Source: Candidatus Aenigmatarchaeota archaeon (lineage in GTDB: Archaea; Aenigmatarchaeota; Aenigmatarchaeia; PWEA01; JACQIF01). From it: a stretch of DNA of 64,000 nucleotides. The stretch's first letter is position 1, and each line of letters starts with the position of its first letter. Shown piece after piece: positions 902-60,850 of this stretch. The DNA lies in contig CP066684.1 of assembly GCA_016432325.1 (NCBI GenBank), positions 640,001-704,000 of the forward strand, given 5' to 3'. The notes beneath the pieces were generated by a model. It was not told where the DNA came from. It searched no databases and saw nothing but the letters and a program-made list of their open reading frames with translations. A program made the position numbers and the translations under genes.

Positions 902-1118
902 GGGCCGGTGGTCTAGTGGAAGCGCCTTTTTGCCGCGGCAAAAACCCGCGGGAAATCCGCTGACGCCACAATGACGTCTGCTTTGCATTCGCGAAACTTC
1001 GAAATGAAGTTTCGTACGCACAAAACAGCAGAAGGCCGTGGGTTCAAAGGCAAACGCCTGCGTTTGCATTCCGGGTTCGCCTGTGAATTCAACGCCGAAA
1101 TTCCCACCCGGTCCACCA
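902..1118 (+). tRNA. tRNA-Ala(UGC) with three BHB introns (922-971, 988-1026, 1049-1101); CCA encoded
   Basis: Spliced 75-nt cloverleaf GGGCCGG/CCGGTCC-A-CCA; anticodon arm TCTGC TT TGC AA GCAGA; BHB helices GTGG/CCAC, TTTG/CAAA, TTCA/CGAA (one mismatch). Confidence 0.9.
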
Positions 1119-1130
1119 ATATTTTAAAAC

Positions 1131-1209
1131 GTGGACCTTCGAATGAAATTCGAAAACTTCGAACCGCCGTTCGAAGACCTTTGAAACCGCAGTTTCGTTG
1201 GGTCCACCA
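1131..1209. repeat. Hairpin cassette ending in a copy of the tRNA-Ala 3' end (GGTCCACCA)
   Basis: GTGGACC...GGTCCAC stem; GGTCCACCA at 1110-1118 and 1201-1209. Confidence 0.7.
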
Positions 1210-1244
1210 CCATTGTTATATAATCTGTTCGGTAAAGTGATATC

Positions 1245-1685
1245 ATGAACGCAGGAAATGACGTGTTCCCACGCGGCGTCGAAATCGTGAGCGGCGCGAT
1301 AATAAGGAGGGATGGAAAGATTCTGCTGACGAAATCTCCAAAATGGCATAACAAGTGGGTGCTTCCCGGCGGACATATAGAGGCTGGCGAACGCATTCTC
1401 GAAGCCGCCATGCGTGAAGGAGAGGAGGAAACGGGACTGAAGTTGAAGCCCGTGACTATCTTGCTGTTCGGCGAGCTCATTAATTCCAAGGATTTTCACC
1501 GTCCGGCCCACTTCATCTTTTTCGACGGTATCTTCGACGTCATCGGCGGCGAATTGAAACTACAGCAGAATGAGCTGACAGAATCCAAATGGCTCACGCC
1601 TGAGGAAGCGCTGAAGCTGGATCTGGCCGATGGCTACCCAGAGACGTTACAAAGATACATTGGGTTCCTGAAATCCAAGGTCTAG
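1245..1685 (+). CDS. NUDIX hydrolase
   Basis: Nudix box GGHIEAGE...AAMREGEEETGL. Confidence 0.92.
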   Translation: MNAGNDVFPRGVEIVSGAIIRRDGKILLTKSPKWHNKWVLPGGHIEAGERILEAAMREGEEETGLKLKPVTILLFGELINSKDFHRPAHFIFFDGIFDVIGGELKLQQNELTESKWLTPEEALKLDLADGYPETLQRYIGFLKSKV

Positions 1686-1688
1686 AAC

Positions 1689-2168
1689 TCACAAAGGCCG
1701 TCGCGCAGGGCGCGGCGGCGCGCTTTCCAGAGGCCGCTTCTCCATTATTTCACGGAGCTGTCCCGAAGATTCTTCGCCTATTCGAACGGTGACCTTAAGC
1801 CTCGGGTCGTTTGGGAACATTTCAGACAGGCTGAGCTCTTTCTCGAAGGCCTTGCCTTTCTCAAATTTGTCGCGGCCGACGACGAAGTACATCGCGCCGA
1901 CAGTTATTTTTGGCGTAGGCGGCGCGAAGCTGTGGCCTACATCCTGCGTGACTTCGTAGCCCACGACGTCGTCGTTCCACGAAATAACCTCAGCGAACGG
2001 CCTTCTTACGGACCCGTTTTCCTTCAATCCAAAAATTTCGTCGTGCGACCTGAACAGGCCGCCTGTAACATAGCCGAAGTTGTTCTCGAGTCTCTCGAAC
2101 ATTCCGACGTATTCCGTGTAGGGCTTGAATTTTGCTATTTCGATTTCGTGGACTTTCTTGCCTTTCAT
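1689..2168 (-). CDS. hypothetical protein (paralog of 2173-2616)
   Basis: Aligns by eye over most of its length with the neighbouring ORF (YVGMF..LENNFG.V.GGL.R.H; EVISWN.DV.GYEVTQ). Confidence 0.75.
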   Translation of the reverse strand: MKGKKVHEIEIAKFKPYTEYVGMFERLENNFGYVTGGLFRSHDEIFGLKENGSVRRPFAEVISWNDDVVGYEVTQDVGHSFAPPTPKITVGAMYFVVGRDKFEKGKAFEKELSLSEMFPNDPRLKVTVRIGEESSGQLREIMEKRPLESAPPRPARRPL

Positions 2169-2172
2169 AACA

Positions 2173-2616
2173 TCACGTCAGTTTTGGCCTCATGCTCTCA
2201 ACGATCGCCAGAAGACGTCGCTTTTCCTTTTCGTCCATTCGAACCGTGACCGCGAGGTCCGGGTGCTTTATTTCCGCCGAGATATACAGTTCCTTCTCTA
2301 TGGGACCCGCTCTCTCCAGTTGCTCCACACCGACGACGAAGTAGACGTTGCCCACCGTCCTTTTCGGAGTAGGCGGAAACGGGCTGTGGCCTGTCTGCTG
2401 CGTGACCTCATAACCGATGACATCTTTGTTCCACGAGATTACCTCCGTGATGGGCTCACGGATGAAGCTGTCTCCTCTGATATCGAAGAGCCTTCTATGA
2501 GTTCTCAGCAGGCCGCTGGTCACGCGACCGAAATTGTTCTCAAGGGCGTTGAACATGCCGACGTACCCGCCGTAAGGCTCGAACTTCCCTATCTCTATTT
2601 TGTGGATCTCTTTCAT
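2173..2616 (-). CDS. hypothetical protein (paralog of 1689-2168)
   Basis: Tandem duplicate, operon-like spacing. Confidence 0.75.
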   Translation of the reverse strand: MKEIHKIEIGKFEPYGGYVGMFNALENNFGRVTSGLLRTHRRLFDIRGDSFIREPITEVISWNKDVIGYEVTQQTGHSPFPPTPKRTVGNVYFVVGVEQLERAGPIEKELYISAEIKHPDLAVTVRMDEKEKRRLLAIVESMRPKLT

Positions 2617-2620
2617 CGCA

Positions 2621-58774: not shown

Positions 58775-58801
58775 ACACACCCCCGTGAGCGCGTTTAACA
58801 T

Positions 58802-59284
58802 TTAAGCTTGTTTCCCGCCGCTCATAAGGTTGCTCTTCTCAACCAAAAGAACCTCTCCAGAATGCGCGTCTATCCTAACGTTGAGAGCCATTCCGCTCGC
58901 CTCCAAGAAAGTGACGTTCCAATACTCCATGCCGTTCTTCTGTACAGCGAGTATTATTTTGACGGGCTTGATTTTAGACTCCTCGGCGTTTCTCAACGCG
59001 GTCTGAAGCGCCGTCGCCTCGTCCGTCTCGGGCATCTTGTCGAACGGAGCATATGTTTTCTCGTGGAGCGGCACGTCTGCGTCCTCCGTCGCAACTCCTT
59101 TCTCGGAAACGGCCACCGGAACCATCTTGCCTGTCTTCGGAACGTAATAGCTGAGGTTCCACGCGTCTATCTTCTGTTTGGGATTGAGCATCACATAGGC
59201 CGAGCAGAAGAACGCGCCTCTGGCTTTCAGCGCCTTGACGTCTGCTGAATCCTCTGCCATTTTCACCGCATCTGCGAGCTTCAT
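58802..59284 (-). CDS. hypothetical protein with PepSY-like C-terminus
   Basis: W.V.F.......V.IDA.SGEV. Confidence 0.7.
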   Translation of the reverse strand: MKLADAVKMAEDSADVKALKARGAFFCSAYVMLNPKQKIDAWNLSYYVPKTGKMVPVAVSEKGVATEDADVPLHEKTYAPFDKMPETDEATALQTALRNAEESKIKPVKIILAVQKNGMEYWNVTFLEASGMALNVRIDAHSGEVLLVEKSNLMSGGKQA

Positions 59285-59334
59285 ACGCCGTCTGCAAAAG
59301 AAGATTATAAATACTTCGTGTACAAAGCGACGCT

Positions 59335-59898
59335 ATGATAGAACGCACGCTCGTACTCATCAAACCCGACGGCGTGGCGCGCGGACTCATCGGAGAGTGC
59401 GTCAAACGTTTTGAACAGCGCGGCCTGAAAGTCGTCGGAATGAAGATGATCCGTCCTGACGCGAAGCTTGTGGGAGACCATTACACAGACGACCTCGAGT
59501 GGCTGACGAGCGTTGGCCGCAAGACCAAAGTTTCGTACGAGAAGAAAGGCATGAAGATGGACAAACCCGATGTCGAGATAGGCCGCTACGTGCGCAAGTG
59601 GCTGATGGACTACCTCGCGTCAGGGCCTGTCGTTGCGCTCGTTCTTGAAGGGCATCACGCCGTGGAGATAGCGCGCAAATTATGCGGCGACACAGAACCG
59701 CGCGTCGCCCTGCCCGGAACGATCCGCGGGGACCTTTCCGTCGAGTCGTACATGATAGGCGACGAGAAGCAGAGGCCCGTCAAGAACGTCGTTCACGCGT
59801 CAGGCTCCGTCAAAGAGGCGGAGAGCGAGATGAAGGTATGGTTTTCCGAGAACGAACTCTGCTCATACGAGCGCGTTGATTGGGCGGCGATACACTAA
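59335..59898 (+). CDS. ndk: nucleoside diphosphate kinase
   Basis: ERTLV.IKPDGV.RGLIG, PGTIRGD, N.VHAS. Confidence 0.96.
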   Translation: MIERTLVLIKPDGVARGLIGECVKRFEQRGLKVVGMKMIRPDAKLVGDHYTDDLEWLTSVGRKTKVSYEKKGMKMDKPDVEIGRYVRKWLMDYLASGPVVALVLEGHHAVEIARKLCGDTEPRVALPGTIRGDLSVESYMIGDEKQRPVKNVVHASGSVKEAESEMKVWFSENELCSYERVDWAAIH

Positions 59899-60362
59899 CC
59901 CAGATACCGCTGCGTGCCTTCCTCTTCCTCGCTGTACTCCTTCCAGTTCTTCTCCATCAGTTTCGTGAGCTCGAGCATCCGTGGCTTGAACTCCTTGGTC
60001 CATGCCGCGTAGCACTCCTTGATGAACTTGGCGACGTTCTCGTCCGTGGGTTCGAAGAACGCCTCAAGCGAACGCCACCTCAGTTCGTGATTTTTTCTGT
60101 ACAGTTCTGCGTACGCGTTGCGCTTGTCGTTCAGCGCGTGCGCCTCGAAAACGTGCGAAGGTGAAGAGCCCTCTGAGAGGAACAATATCGGTTCCAGAAC
60201 CTCCTGCATGGCGGTGAACGTGTCGACTATGGCCTTCTTTACATCTTGCAGAGGCGTCTGCGTCTCTTCTTCGAGGACGAAGCCGAACGTGCTCTCAAGC
60301 TCGTCGAGTTTGGGCAGGCCGAGCTTCGTCTGCAGCTTCTTGAAATCCGTGCGGGAGGACAT
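59895..60362 (-). CDS. hypothetical protein
   Basis: Helical ORF ending RYLG. Confidence 0.7.
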   Translation of the reverse strand: MSSRTDFKKLQTKLGLPKLDELESTFGFVLEEETQTPLQDVKKAIVDTFTAMQEVLEPILFLSEGSSPSHVFEAHALNDKRNAYAELYRKNHELRWRSLEAFFEPTDENVAKFIKECYAAWTKEFKPRMLELTKLMEKNWKEYSEEEEGTQRYLG

Positions 60363-60430
60363 GAAAAGAATGGCCAGACAAGATATTTAATACCGATACT
60401 CCCATCCTTTGGCAAGGGCTGGTGGCCATA

Positions 60431-60513
60431 CACGCTTTTACCGGAAAGATTCGCTTTCCGTAAATACGGAATGCCCTGCATTCCGGTATTTTGAGAAAAA
60501 GCGTGGCAAAAAC
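60431..60513. mobile_element. Type-A hairpin element interrupted by a double-hairpin element (60439-60488)
   Basis: CACGCTTT[TACCGG..CCGGTA]TTTTGAGAAAAAGCGTGGCAAAAAC. Confidence 0.7.
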
Positions 60514-60548
60514 ACGTTTTATACTTGCTCGTCGTTTGTTTTTCCAGT

Positions 60549-60798
60549 GGGCTGGTGGTCTAGCGGTTGCGCCTTTTTGCTGCGGCAAAAACCCGCGGGA
60601 AAAAATACGCCTGCCGGCAGCGCCGCACATGACGTCGCCTTAGGGAACACGATTCCCGGTGAACACATGGCGAATATCGCCGGTTCGAACCACCCTTTTG
60701 CGCGCTCGCGCTCTTCGAGCGCTCGCCTGTAAACGCGCAAAAGCGTGCACGGAAAGTCCGCCTGATGGCGCGACTCGAGAATCCGGCCCGGCCCACCA
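60549..60798 (+). tRNA. tRNA-Val(CAC) with three BHB introns (60569-60628 in the D-loop; 60642-60663 at 33/34; 60690-60781 at 59/60); CCA encoded
   Basis: GGGCTGG/CCGGCCC-A-CCA; TCGCC TT CAC AT GGCGA; BHB helices GCGG/CCGC, CGCC/GGTG, TTCG/CGAG. Confidence 0.9.
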
Positions 60799-60850
60799 AA
60801 ACCTCACGGCAAGGGCCGTTGAAACGCGCAGCGTTTCTTGGGCCCACCAA
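60790..60850. repeat. 10-bp duplicate of the tRNA-Val 3' end flanking two hairpins
   Basis: GGCCCACCAA at 60790-60799 and 60841-60850. Confidence 0.75.

Follow-up and report, generated by a model that had tools for sequence, protein, structure and literature searches.

We analysed a window of 64,000 nucleotides (bases 640001–704000) from the 874,869-bp single-contig genome of a Candidatus Aenigmatarchaeota archaeon (56% G+C, ~90% complete); all four tRNA genes of the window (Ala, Arg, Ile and Val) are followed by a partial second copy of their own 3' end. The last 9–16 bases of each gene, including CCA, recur 51–97 nt downstream, on the far side of a short insert that can form hairpins. We call the insert together with the spare copy a cassette, the two copies of the repeat T1 and T2, and a segment of the insert that is complementary to the repeat the anti-T. 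The cassettes look like recent insertions of the selfish-DNA type, placed exactly after the final base of the tRNA, A76. They are probably non-autonomous hairpin micro-insertions that duplicate their target, with T1 serving as the working tRNA end and T2 being a by-product of insertion.

The four repeats had been proposed in a sequence-only reading of the window, and all of them were confirmed at the positions given there. In each gene, T1 consists of the acceptor 3' strand, the discriminator base and CCA, is contiguous with the T arm and is complementary to the 5' strand of the gene; the tRNA remains intact through T1. The genes, which we located via their acceptor-stem and D/T-arm signatures, are real tRNA genes and carry several introns each, apart from tRNA-Arg with one. 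The parts of the four loci, in window coordinates, are as follows.

902–1118, plus strand: tRNA-Ala(UGC) gene with several introns, a G3:U70 acceptor stem and encoded CCA, A76 at 1118; recognised by acceptor complementarity and D/T signatures
1110–1118, plus strand: Ala T1, the last 9 nt (tRNA positions 68–76)
1119–1130, plus strand: A/T-rich linker of the Ala cassette
1131–1137, plus strand: Ala anti-T, 7 nt (GTGGACC), exact complement of tRNA positions 68–74; in the predicted fold it closes a stem with T2
1138–1177, plus strand: nested twin TTCGAA-type hairpin module of the Ala cassette, found in the same place in the tRNA-Ile(GAU) cassette elsewhere in the genome
1183–1196, plus strand: Ala core hairpin, GAAAC...GTTTC family
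1201–1209, plus strand: Ala T2, the spare 3'-end copy of 9 nt; next comes the TATA box of a gene with its ATG at 1245
43123–43232, minus strand: tRNA-Arg(CCU) gene with one intron, A76 at 43123; Rfam tRNA match of 45 bits
43121–43136, minus strand: Arg T1, a 16-nt repeat made up of 3 nt of the T stem, the acceptor 3' strand, G73, CCA and 2 nt beyond
43058–43120, minus strand: spacer of the Arg cassette, with a 10-bp hairpin at 43061–43083 and no recognisable anti-T
43042–43057, minus strand: Arg T2, 16 nt, immediately before the TATA box of the gene that follows on the minus strand
58587–58774, minus strand: tRNA-Ile(UAU) gene with introns in the anticodon loop and the T loop, A76 at 58587
58587–58596, minus strand: Ile(UAU) T1, 10 nt
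58500–58586, minus strand: spacer of the Ile(UAU) cassette, a series of nested hairpins that ends with a CAAACC...GGTTTG core
58490–58499, minus strand: Ile(UAU) T2, 10 nt, in front of the TATA box of the next gene, whose ATG is leaderless
60549–60798, plus strand: tRNA-Val gene with several introns, A76 at 60798; recognised by acceptor complementarity and D/T signatures
60790–60799, plus strand: Val T1, 9 nt of the tRNA plus 1 nt
60800–60840, plus strand: spacer of the Val cassette, with linker, 5-nt anti-T (60813–60817) and core hairpin (60821–60837)
60841–60850, plus strand: Val T2, 10 nt, abutting the stop codon (60851–60853) of a convergent gene for 625 amino acids

The pairing of GTGGACC with either copy of the Ala repeat, which had also been proposed, is borne out: the segment is complementary to both. 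All spacers had further been described as palindrome-rich. Three of the four do fold better than their shuffled versions (z −2.9 to −3.8), but the overall fold of the Arg spacer is not significant (z −1.2) despite its 10-bp hairpin. The core hairpin of the Ile(UAU) cassette recurs in another tRNA's second cassette, and the cassette behind tRNA-Val constitutes the whole spacer between that gene and its convergent neighbour.

To place these loci in the genome we used an inventory of ~42 tRNA genes, obtained by a signature scan (acceptor-stem complementarity, the position 8–15 signature, a T-stem check and an encoded NCCA) and hand curation, from which a few genes may be missing. All of them except tRNA-Leu(CAG) encode CCA. 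The 3'-end repeat is found behind 11 of these genes, and a twelfth case is tRNA-Lys (genome 24819), in which further hairpins split the second copy. Measured against the background, in which a random 10-mer of the genome has a copy with at most one mismatch 25–120 nt downstream in 0.84% of cases, the chance of finding the repeat at four of four tRNAs in the window is P ~5e-9; for 12 of 42, with the decayed Lys case counted, it is P ~1e-15, and for 11 of 42 it is still vanishingly small. Thus, duplication of the tRNA 3' end is massively non-random, yet not universal. The generality that four of four had suggested holds for the window and not for the genome, where most other tRNAs lack the repeat, but its frequency is far above chance. 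All four tRNAs of the genome that end in the 9-mer common to Ala and Ile(GAU) have cassettes. When the spacings of all 9-mer direct repeats are considered, multiples of three, which stem from coding repeats, dominate, and there is a modest excess at 45–54. A reversed-genome control for the architecture scan proved useless, as reversal preserves both direct repeats and hairpins.

The cassettes are not an assembly artefact. The metagenome runs that contain this stretch come from groundwater, and no RNA run is listed among them; contigs of four separate runs (DNA, one groundwater study) contain identical cassettes at the Arg and Ile loci, and the Val cassette is covered by contigs as well. Among the contig joints listed, none skips a cassette and no variant was seen; five further joints lie outside those listed. 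These observations come from contigs, which drop rare alleles and say nothing on excision or minicircles.

In the orientation of the tRNA, a cassette reads T1, an A/T-rich linker of 12–15 nt (often with a TTCAA-like motif), the anti-T, one or more hairpin modules, 2–4 nt, and T2, a layout that is clear in full in about half of the 3' cassettes. The inserts are 40–90 bases long (spacers 40–87 nt), gene-free and rich in hairpins, and seven of the cassettes have a period of 49–54 nt with a core hairpin of 6–8 bp. The anti-T, 5–7 nt complementary to tRNA positions 68–74, has its best match starting at spacer offset 11–15 (0-based) in 9 of 11 cassettes, and matches with at most one mismatch in five (P ~1e-3 with position unused; far lower with position, by our own estimate). 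For the 49–54-nt class, the predicted fold is a two-tier hairpin in which the anti-T:T2 helix is stacked on the core; in Ala, the predicted anti-T:T2 stem encloses three inner hairpins. The longer cassettes (79–97 nt) contain additional hairpin modules. Without the ~42-nt twin TTCGAA hairpin, the Ala and Ile(GAU) cassettes become basic cassettes of 49–53 nt, and Arg and Ile(UAU), which lack a recognisable anti-T, fit the basic layout less well. The repeat extends 0, 1 and 2 nt beyond A76 in 7, 3 and 1 cases, respectively, and because this distribution fits an exact junction plus chance matches, we place the junction exactly after A76.

Two loci show further layers of insertion. Behind tRNA-Lys (genome 24700–24820, minus strand), T2 is split by two or three nested hairpins, and their removal restores an 11-nt copy identical to that behind two other tRNAs. 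At genome 246690–246830 (minus strand), two tandem cassettes follow one tRNA; the core hairpin of the second differs from that of the first, and the tRNA end that it repeats, by then a third copy, has decayed. The splitting in Lys and the decay in this second cassette (tRNA at genome 246820) show that T2 is dispensable.

The cassettes are insertions that were gained in this lineage. A comparison with relatives, which had also been suggested earlier, covered a genome of the same genus (G001) and four of the same order; in nine of nine tRNAs with the same last 9 nt there is no second copy, and an ordinary A/T-rich trailer follows directly. Among 105 distinct metagenome loci with the identical 19-nt 3' end of tRNA-Val, two have a near-copy downstream, which is the chance level, and neither is cassette-like. 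A pattern search for one tRNA end in 300 genomes of the class gave chance-level matches only. Of ~30 tRNA loci from five relatives, one (L040, in genome G013) has a comparable cassette, 50 nt long, with its own hairpin and an inverted copy of the target; the phenomenon therefore exists elsewhere in the order and has been expanded in this genome. The tRNA at this locus (G013 contig 9, minus strand, ~1215–1275) ends in CAGCGCCA, and the parts of its cassette are ordered hairpin, linker, inverted target copy. G013 belongs to another family of the order, and its cassette represents a different element family that follows the same principle. A synteny-based search for the orthologue of tRNA-Val via its adjoining gene failed: in the closest genome, at 70% protein identity, the tRNA lies elsewhere.

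The empty sites also bear on the idea that the cassette is a functional 3' trailer, i.e., a module that processes or insulates the pre-tRNA, such as a minihelix mimic cut by RNase P or another tRNA-processing enzyme, a terminator or a protector of the 3' end. Consistent with such a role, the 49–54-nt class is predicted to form a hairpin with a free CA or CCA tail, and all 3' cassettes with readable polarity have the same orientation relative to the tRNA. Maturation of tRNA 3' ends may also be unusual in this organism. The RNase Z model (TIGR02651) gave only an 18-bit fragment in the genome, which is not a convincing match, yet an archaeal CCA-adding enzyme is encoded at genome 55590–56810, and there is a weak match to archaeal RNase P RNA at window 9010–9275, plus strand (56 bits against a gathering score of 84 bits, model positions 21–242). 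The latter probably marks the gene for RNase P RNA, which hairpin inserts may interrupt; RNase Z, for its part, may be divergent or lie in the missing 10% of the genome. Against a trailer function, a cassette is lacking from ~30 further tRNAs in this genome and from the corresponding tRNAs of relatives, T2 decays or is interrupted, and the same architecture is present at protein gene starts and at a TATA box. In addition, the predicted helix pairs positions 68–74 and so forms no true acceptor stem, and its Ala version lacks G3:U70. We therefore consider a functional trailer unlikely. The more specific suggestion of the sequence-only reading, a trailer that offers alternative 3' ends, is not supported by these observations, since T2 also lacks the first one or two acceptor bases (usually positions 66–67) in all cassettes except Arg and is absent from the orthologues of relatives.

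Another suggestion made from the sequence was that the repeats are att sites or collapsed genomic islands, left behind by integrase-mediated integrative elements. The 3' ends of tRNA genes are classical attachment sites, and the direct repeat does include the tRNA 3' end. Casposons likewise have a duplicated target overlapping the 3' end of a tRNA gene: the casposon of Aciduliprofundum boonei integrates at the 3' end of tRNA-Pro and duplicates a fixed 15 bp, 5 bp of which overlap the tRNA (PMC5137440). The cassettes share with casposons and with tyrosine-recombinase att sites their position adjoining or overlapping the tRNA 3' end and the flanking direct repeat of the target. However, those elements are kilobases long and encode their integrase, whereas the cassettes are gene-free spacers of 40–87 nt composed of hairpin modules that are shared with introns. 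Moreover, they contain the anti-target segment, which is not a product of att recombination, the same architecture occurs at sites other than tRNAs, and the sizes cluster at 49–54 nt, with nested hairpins explaining the longer ones. No integrase or Cas1 lies near any cassette; the ~90%-complete genome has no match to the Cas1 model, and the only matches to Phage_integrase, two in number, are at genome 289 kb and 783 kb, outside the window. We thus give almost no credence to an att origin. A separate, A/T-rich-looking stretch at genome 284–290 kb may, unlike the mini-cassettes, be a conventional integrated element; it contains a tyrosine recombinase gene (289344–289823) and adjoins a tRNA whose end is at 290316.

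The sequences of the cassettes point to movement within the genome. Linkers and cores are common to cassettes at unrelated tRNAs: one family comprises the tRNAs ending at genome 314620 and 515963, the tRNA at 29818 and Lys, and another the tRNAs at 60969, 292773 and 246820 together with Ala. The composite Ala cassette aligns over its full length, twin hairpin included, with the Ile(GAU) cassette 189 kb away. Similarity between the two loci falls off at T1 and T2, beyond which only generic T-loop and TATA bases agree; therefore, a finished cassette was copied between two genes that have only the 9–10-nt target in common. Core hairpin families are present at 5–32 genomic sites, some of which are the 3' ends of T-loop introns, and the hairpin family of the Arg cassette also occurs in a tRNA D-loop intron in the opposite orientation, which argues for an element acting at the DNA level and not for an RNA signal. 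In sum, the cassettes are multi-copy and dispersed, with presence/absence differences between relatives.

The cassettes are also not tRNA-specific. A mirror-image layout, in the order spare target, core, anti-target, linker and real target, is found at several gene starts and at two tRNA 5' ends, and at the gene starts the linker supplies a GGTGA-type ribosome-binding site. One cassette in the window is not associated with a tRNA.

13251–13319, no strand assigned: a TATA-box-containing target of 17–18 nt, duplicated with a period of 51; between the copies lie a palindromic hairpin and a degenerate copy of the target in inverted orientation

The same element families populate the tRNA introns, gene starts and tRNA 5' ends of this genome. 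Accordingly, the description as minimal tRNA-targeting elements comes nearest of the three made from the sequence, but only part of it can be kept: the cassettes are small insertions, absent from relatives and precise at the tRNA end, but gene starts, tRNA 5' ends and a TATA box are hit as well.

These shared sequences weigh on the possibility that each cassette arose in place by local replication errors, i.e., by slippage or template switching at a pre-existing hairpin, with no mobile element involved. Quasi-palindrome template switching is an established way of creating or perfecting inverted copies beside a hairpin and could have generated the anti-T; the variable length of the duplication and the failure to find a transposase fit as well. 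Errors of this kind do not account for linkers and cores that are common to unrelated loci, or for the composite cassette of Ala and Ile(GAU), in which homology ends at T. The tRNA trailers of relatives, moreover, contain neither a cassette nor a second copy from which one could grow. A purely local origin is thus improbable.

Because the core hairpin families are also found at the 3' end of real T-loop introns, the cassette might alternatively be a terminal intron, in which the spacer plus one copy of the repeat is removed by the splicing endonuclease from the acceptor 3' strand and the mature end comes from T2. At least one of these introns, in tRNA-Gly (genome 758935), has an anti-exon segment before its core, much as the cassettes do, and self-complementary 4-mers in T would permit a register-preserving central helix in 10 of 11 cassettes. 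Such a helix is, however, expected by chance, with a probability of ~0.14 per position over ~10 positions. A strict test for a bulge-helix-bulge (BHB) motif across both copies returned central helices at the chance level and weak or absent flanking helices, with at most two of three bases paired in the outer helix and zero to three of three in the inner one; relaxed motifs of endonucleases with broad specificity lie outside this test. Furthermore, T1 already completes the tRNA in continuity with the T arm, relatives have the uninterrupted form, and T2 is broken in Lys. We therefore regard a terminal intron as very unlikely. The cassettes do resemble the BHB introns of archaeal tRNAs (those of Thermoproteales and the non-canonical ones of ARMAN and other DPANN archaea) in that the same hairpin modules build the tRNA introns of this genome; they differ in starting after A76, outside the mature tRNA, in needing no splicing and in showing no canonical BHB across the copies in the strict test. 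A tRNA-primed origin, similar to a primer-binding site, was dropped as well: the anti-T leaves the terminal CA unpaired, which would make priming from the 3' end impossible.

Among described systems, the closest mechanistic analogue to hairpin micro-insertion appears to be the ends of IS200/IS605 elements, with their guide at the hairpin foot. In IS608 of this family, a cleavage or target site outside the element, ~19 nt 5' of the foot of a subterminal hairpin, is read by base pairing with a guide immediately 5' of that foot, a second cleavage site lies a few nucleotides 3' of a hairpin, and insertion occurs exactly 3' of the target (PMC3201880). REP/REPIN sequences with RAYT are derivatives of this family. 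In the cassettes, T1 is located 20–25 nt 5' of the foot of the core, the anti-T lies within 1–3 nt of the 5' side of that foot, and T2 follows 2–4 nt 3' of it. Such a guide-like arrangement, with at most one or two mismatches in the anti-T and its end 1–3 nt before the core hairpin, is seen in 5–7 of the 11 cassettes as a resemblance of layout. There are clear differences. The cassettes have one hairpin and not two ends, the pairing covers 5–7 nt instead of 4, and the target stands on both sides of the insert, unless T2 is the element's own right cleavage site. In addition, the cassettes hit many different host targets, each with an anti-T of its own, and no Y1/HUH transposase (TnpA or RAYT) was detected in this ~90%-complete genome.

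Short, non-coding, multi-copy hairpin inserts that are tolerated in RNA genes, proteins and spacers are familiar from Rickettsia palindromic elements, from the miniature inverted-repeat transposable elements (MITEs) of archaea and bacteria and from the GC clusters of yeast mitochondria. The cassettes are likewise short, non-coding, hairpin-forming and multi-copy, but unlike typical MITEs they do not have a target duplication of fixed length. We know of no described family of small palindromic elements in which the element's own target is copied, inverted, between its conserved parts, or whose insertions fall exactly behind A76 of many different tRNAs.

As a mechanism for hairpin micro-insertion, we propose that a small hairpin element, moving as DNA, inserts directly 3' of A76 and leaves a duplicated target, of which T2 would be the second half. 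By analogy, the anti-T at the hairpin foot may have the role that the guide plays in IS200/IS605. Another possibility is that template switching at quasi-palindromes produces the segment or maintains its match. Each anti-T matches its own host-specific target, and the segment must therefore be created or corrected at or after insertion. In a read-through transcript, the anti-T, core and T2 would form one long hairpin, which would keep T2 from competing with the real acceptor strand. The constant polarity of the cassettes could then be explained by selection, since the spare copy is the one that is locked in the hairpin, and their position at gene starts could be explained similarly, since the linker supplies a ribosome-binding site.

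Several observations weigh against micro-insertion by such an element: (i) No mobilising enzyme was found; the ~90%-complete genome has no match to the RVT_1, Y1_Tnp or Cas1 models. (ii) The length of the duplication varies (9, 10, 11 and 16 nt at tRNAs, 8–22 nt elsewhere), and most transposases give duplications of fixed length. (iii) The architecture is not uniform, with no recognisable anti-T in the cassettes of Arg, Ile(UAU), Ile(GAU) and the tRNA at genome 246820. (iv) A variable, target-matched segment between conserved element parts fits no ordinary transposition mechanism. (v) No empty/filled polymorphism was seen within the population, as represented by consensus contigs, from which rare alleles are dropped. 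(vi) Selection alone leaves the junction exactly after A76 at every tRNA unexplained. With regard to this last point, the element may prefer a CCA- or CAT-like edge, or mature RNA ends may take part.

The exact junctions invite a bolder interpretation. The duplicated target ends exactly at A76, and the mirror cases start at tRNA position +1 or no more than a base away from the start codon of genes that appear leaderless; A76, tRNA +1 and leaderless starts may all be RNA termini. It is conceivable, though we think it rather doubtful, that the cassettes belong to an undescribed mobile element that copies its landing site into itself in both inverted and direct orientation and whose sites are chosen by nucleic-acid ends and not by sequence. 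If true, there would be a route of insertion that depends on RNA ends or RNA guides, and the same event inside a tRNA would create the enzyme-spliced introns that fill this genome.

The introns also affect how such genomes are annotated. ARAGORN (with and without intron mode) and Rfam, applied to both window and genome, recovered 3–12 of the ~42 tRNAs, some of them with absurd 'introns' of 1–2 kb; genome-wide, 8–12 genes were recovered. In the window, ARAGORN reported zero tRNAs, and tRNA-Arg alone was matched by Rfam. The standard finders nearly fail because nearly every tRNA has one to four introns. Cassettes and multi-intron genes together defeat these programs, so genomes of this kind look tRNA-poor, wrongly.

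Some further features of the window concern its RNA genes. The tRNA-Ile at 58587–58774 (minus strand) apparently has the anticodon UAU in place of the usual archaeal CAU (agmatidine) Ile2, and to our knowledge few archaeal genomes, all of them small, have a UAU tRNA-Ile. In their D loops, tRNA-Ala (925–958) and tRNA-Val (60572–60605) contain almost the same intron, which consists of a TTTTTGC...GCAAAAA hairpin followed by CCCGCGGG; at least three further tRNAs have this module, and it is a place where metagenome contigs break. Rfam locates an archaeal 23S rRNA at 3786–6989, and as the match covers 3204 nt against a model of 2987 positions, the rRNA probably has inserts too.

We found no description in the literature of a class of hairpin micro-insertions that copy their target, and the class is apparently undescribed. 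It points to a mechanism of insertion in which a complementary 'guide' is built in, and for which none of the described transposon families fully accounts. The question of how introns reach archaeal tRNA genes has not been settled (bioRxiv 10.64898/2026.10.13.758758). Here, the hairpin modules that build the introns are caught just outside the tRNA, with the footprints of insertion intact and with relatives providing the empty sites, which yields a concrete, testable model of intron arrival. The cassettes are also a visible link to the origin of the tRNA introns of this lineage.

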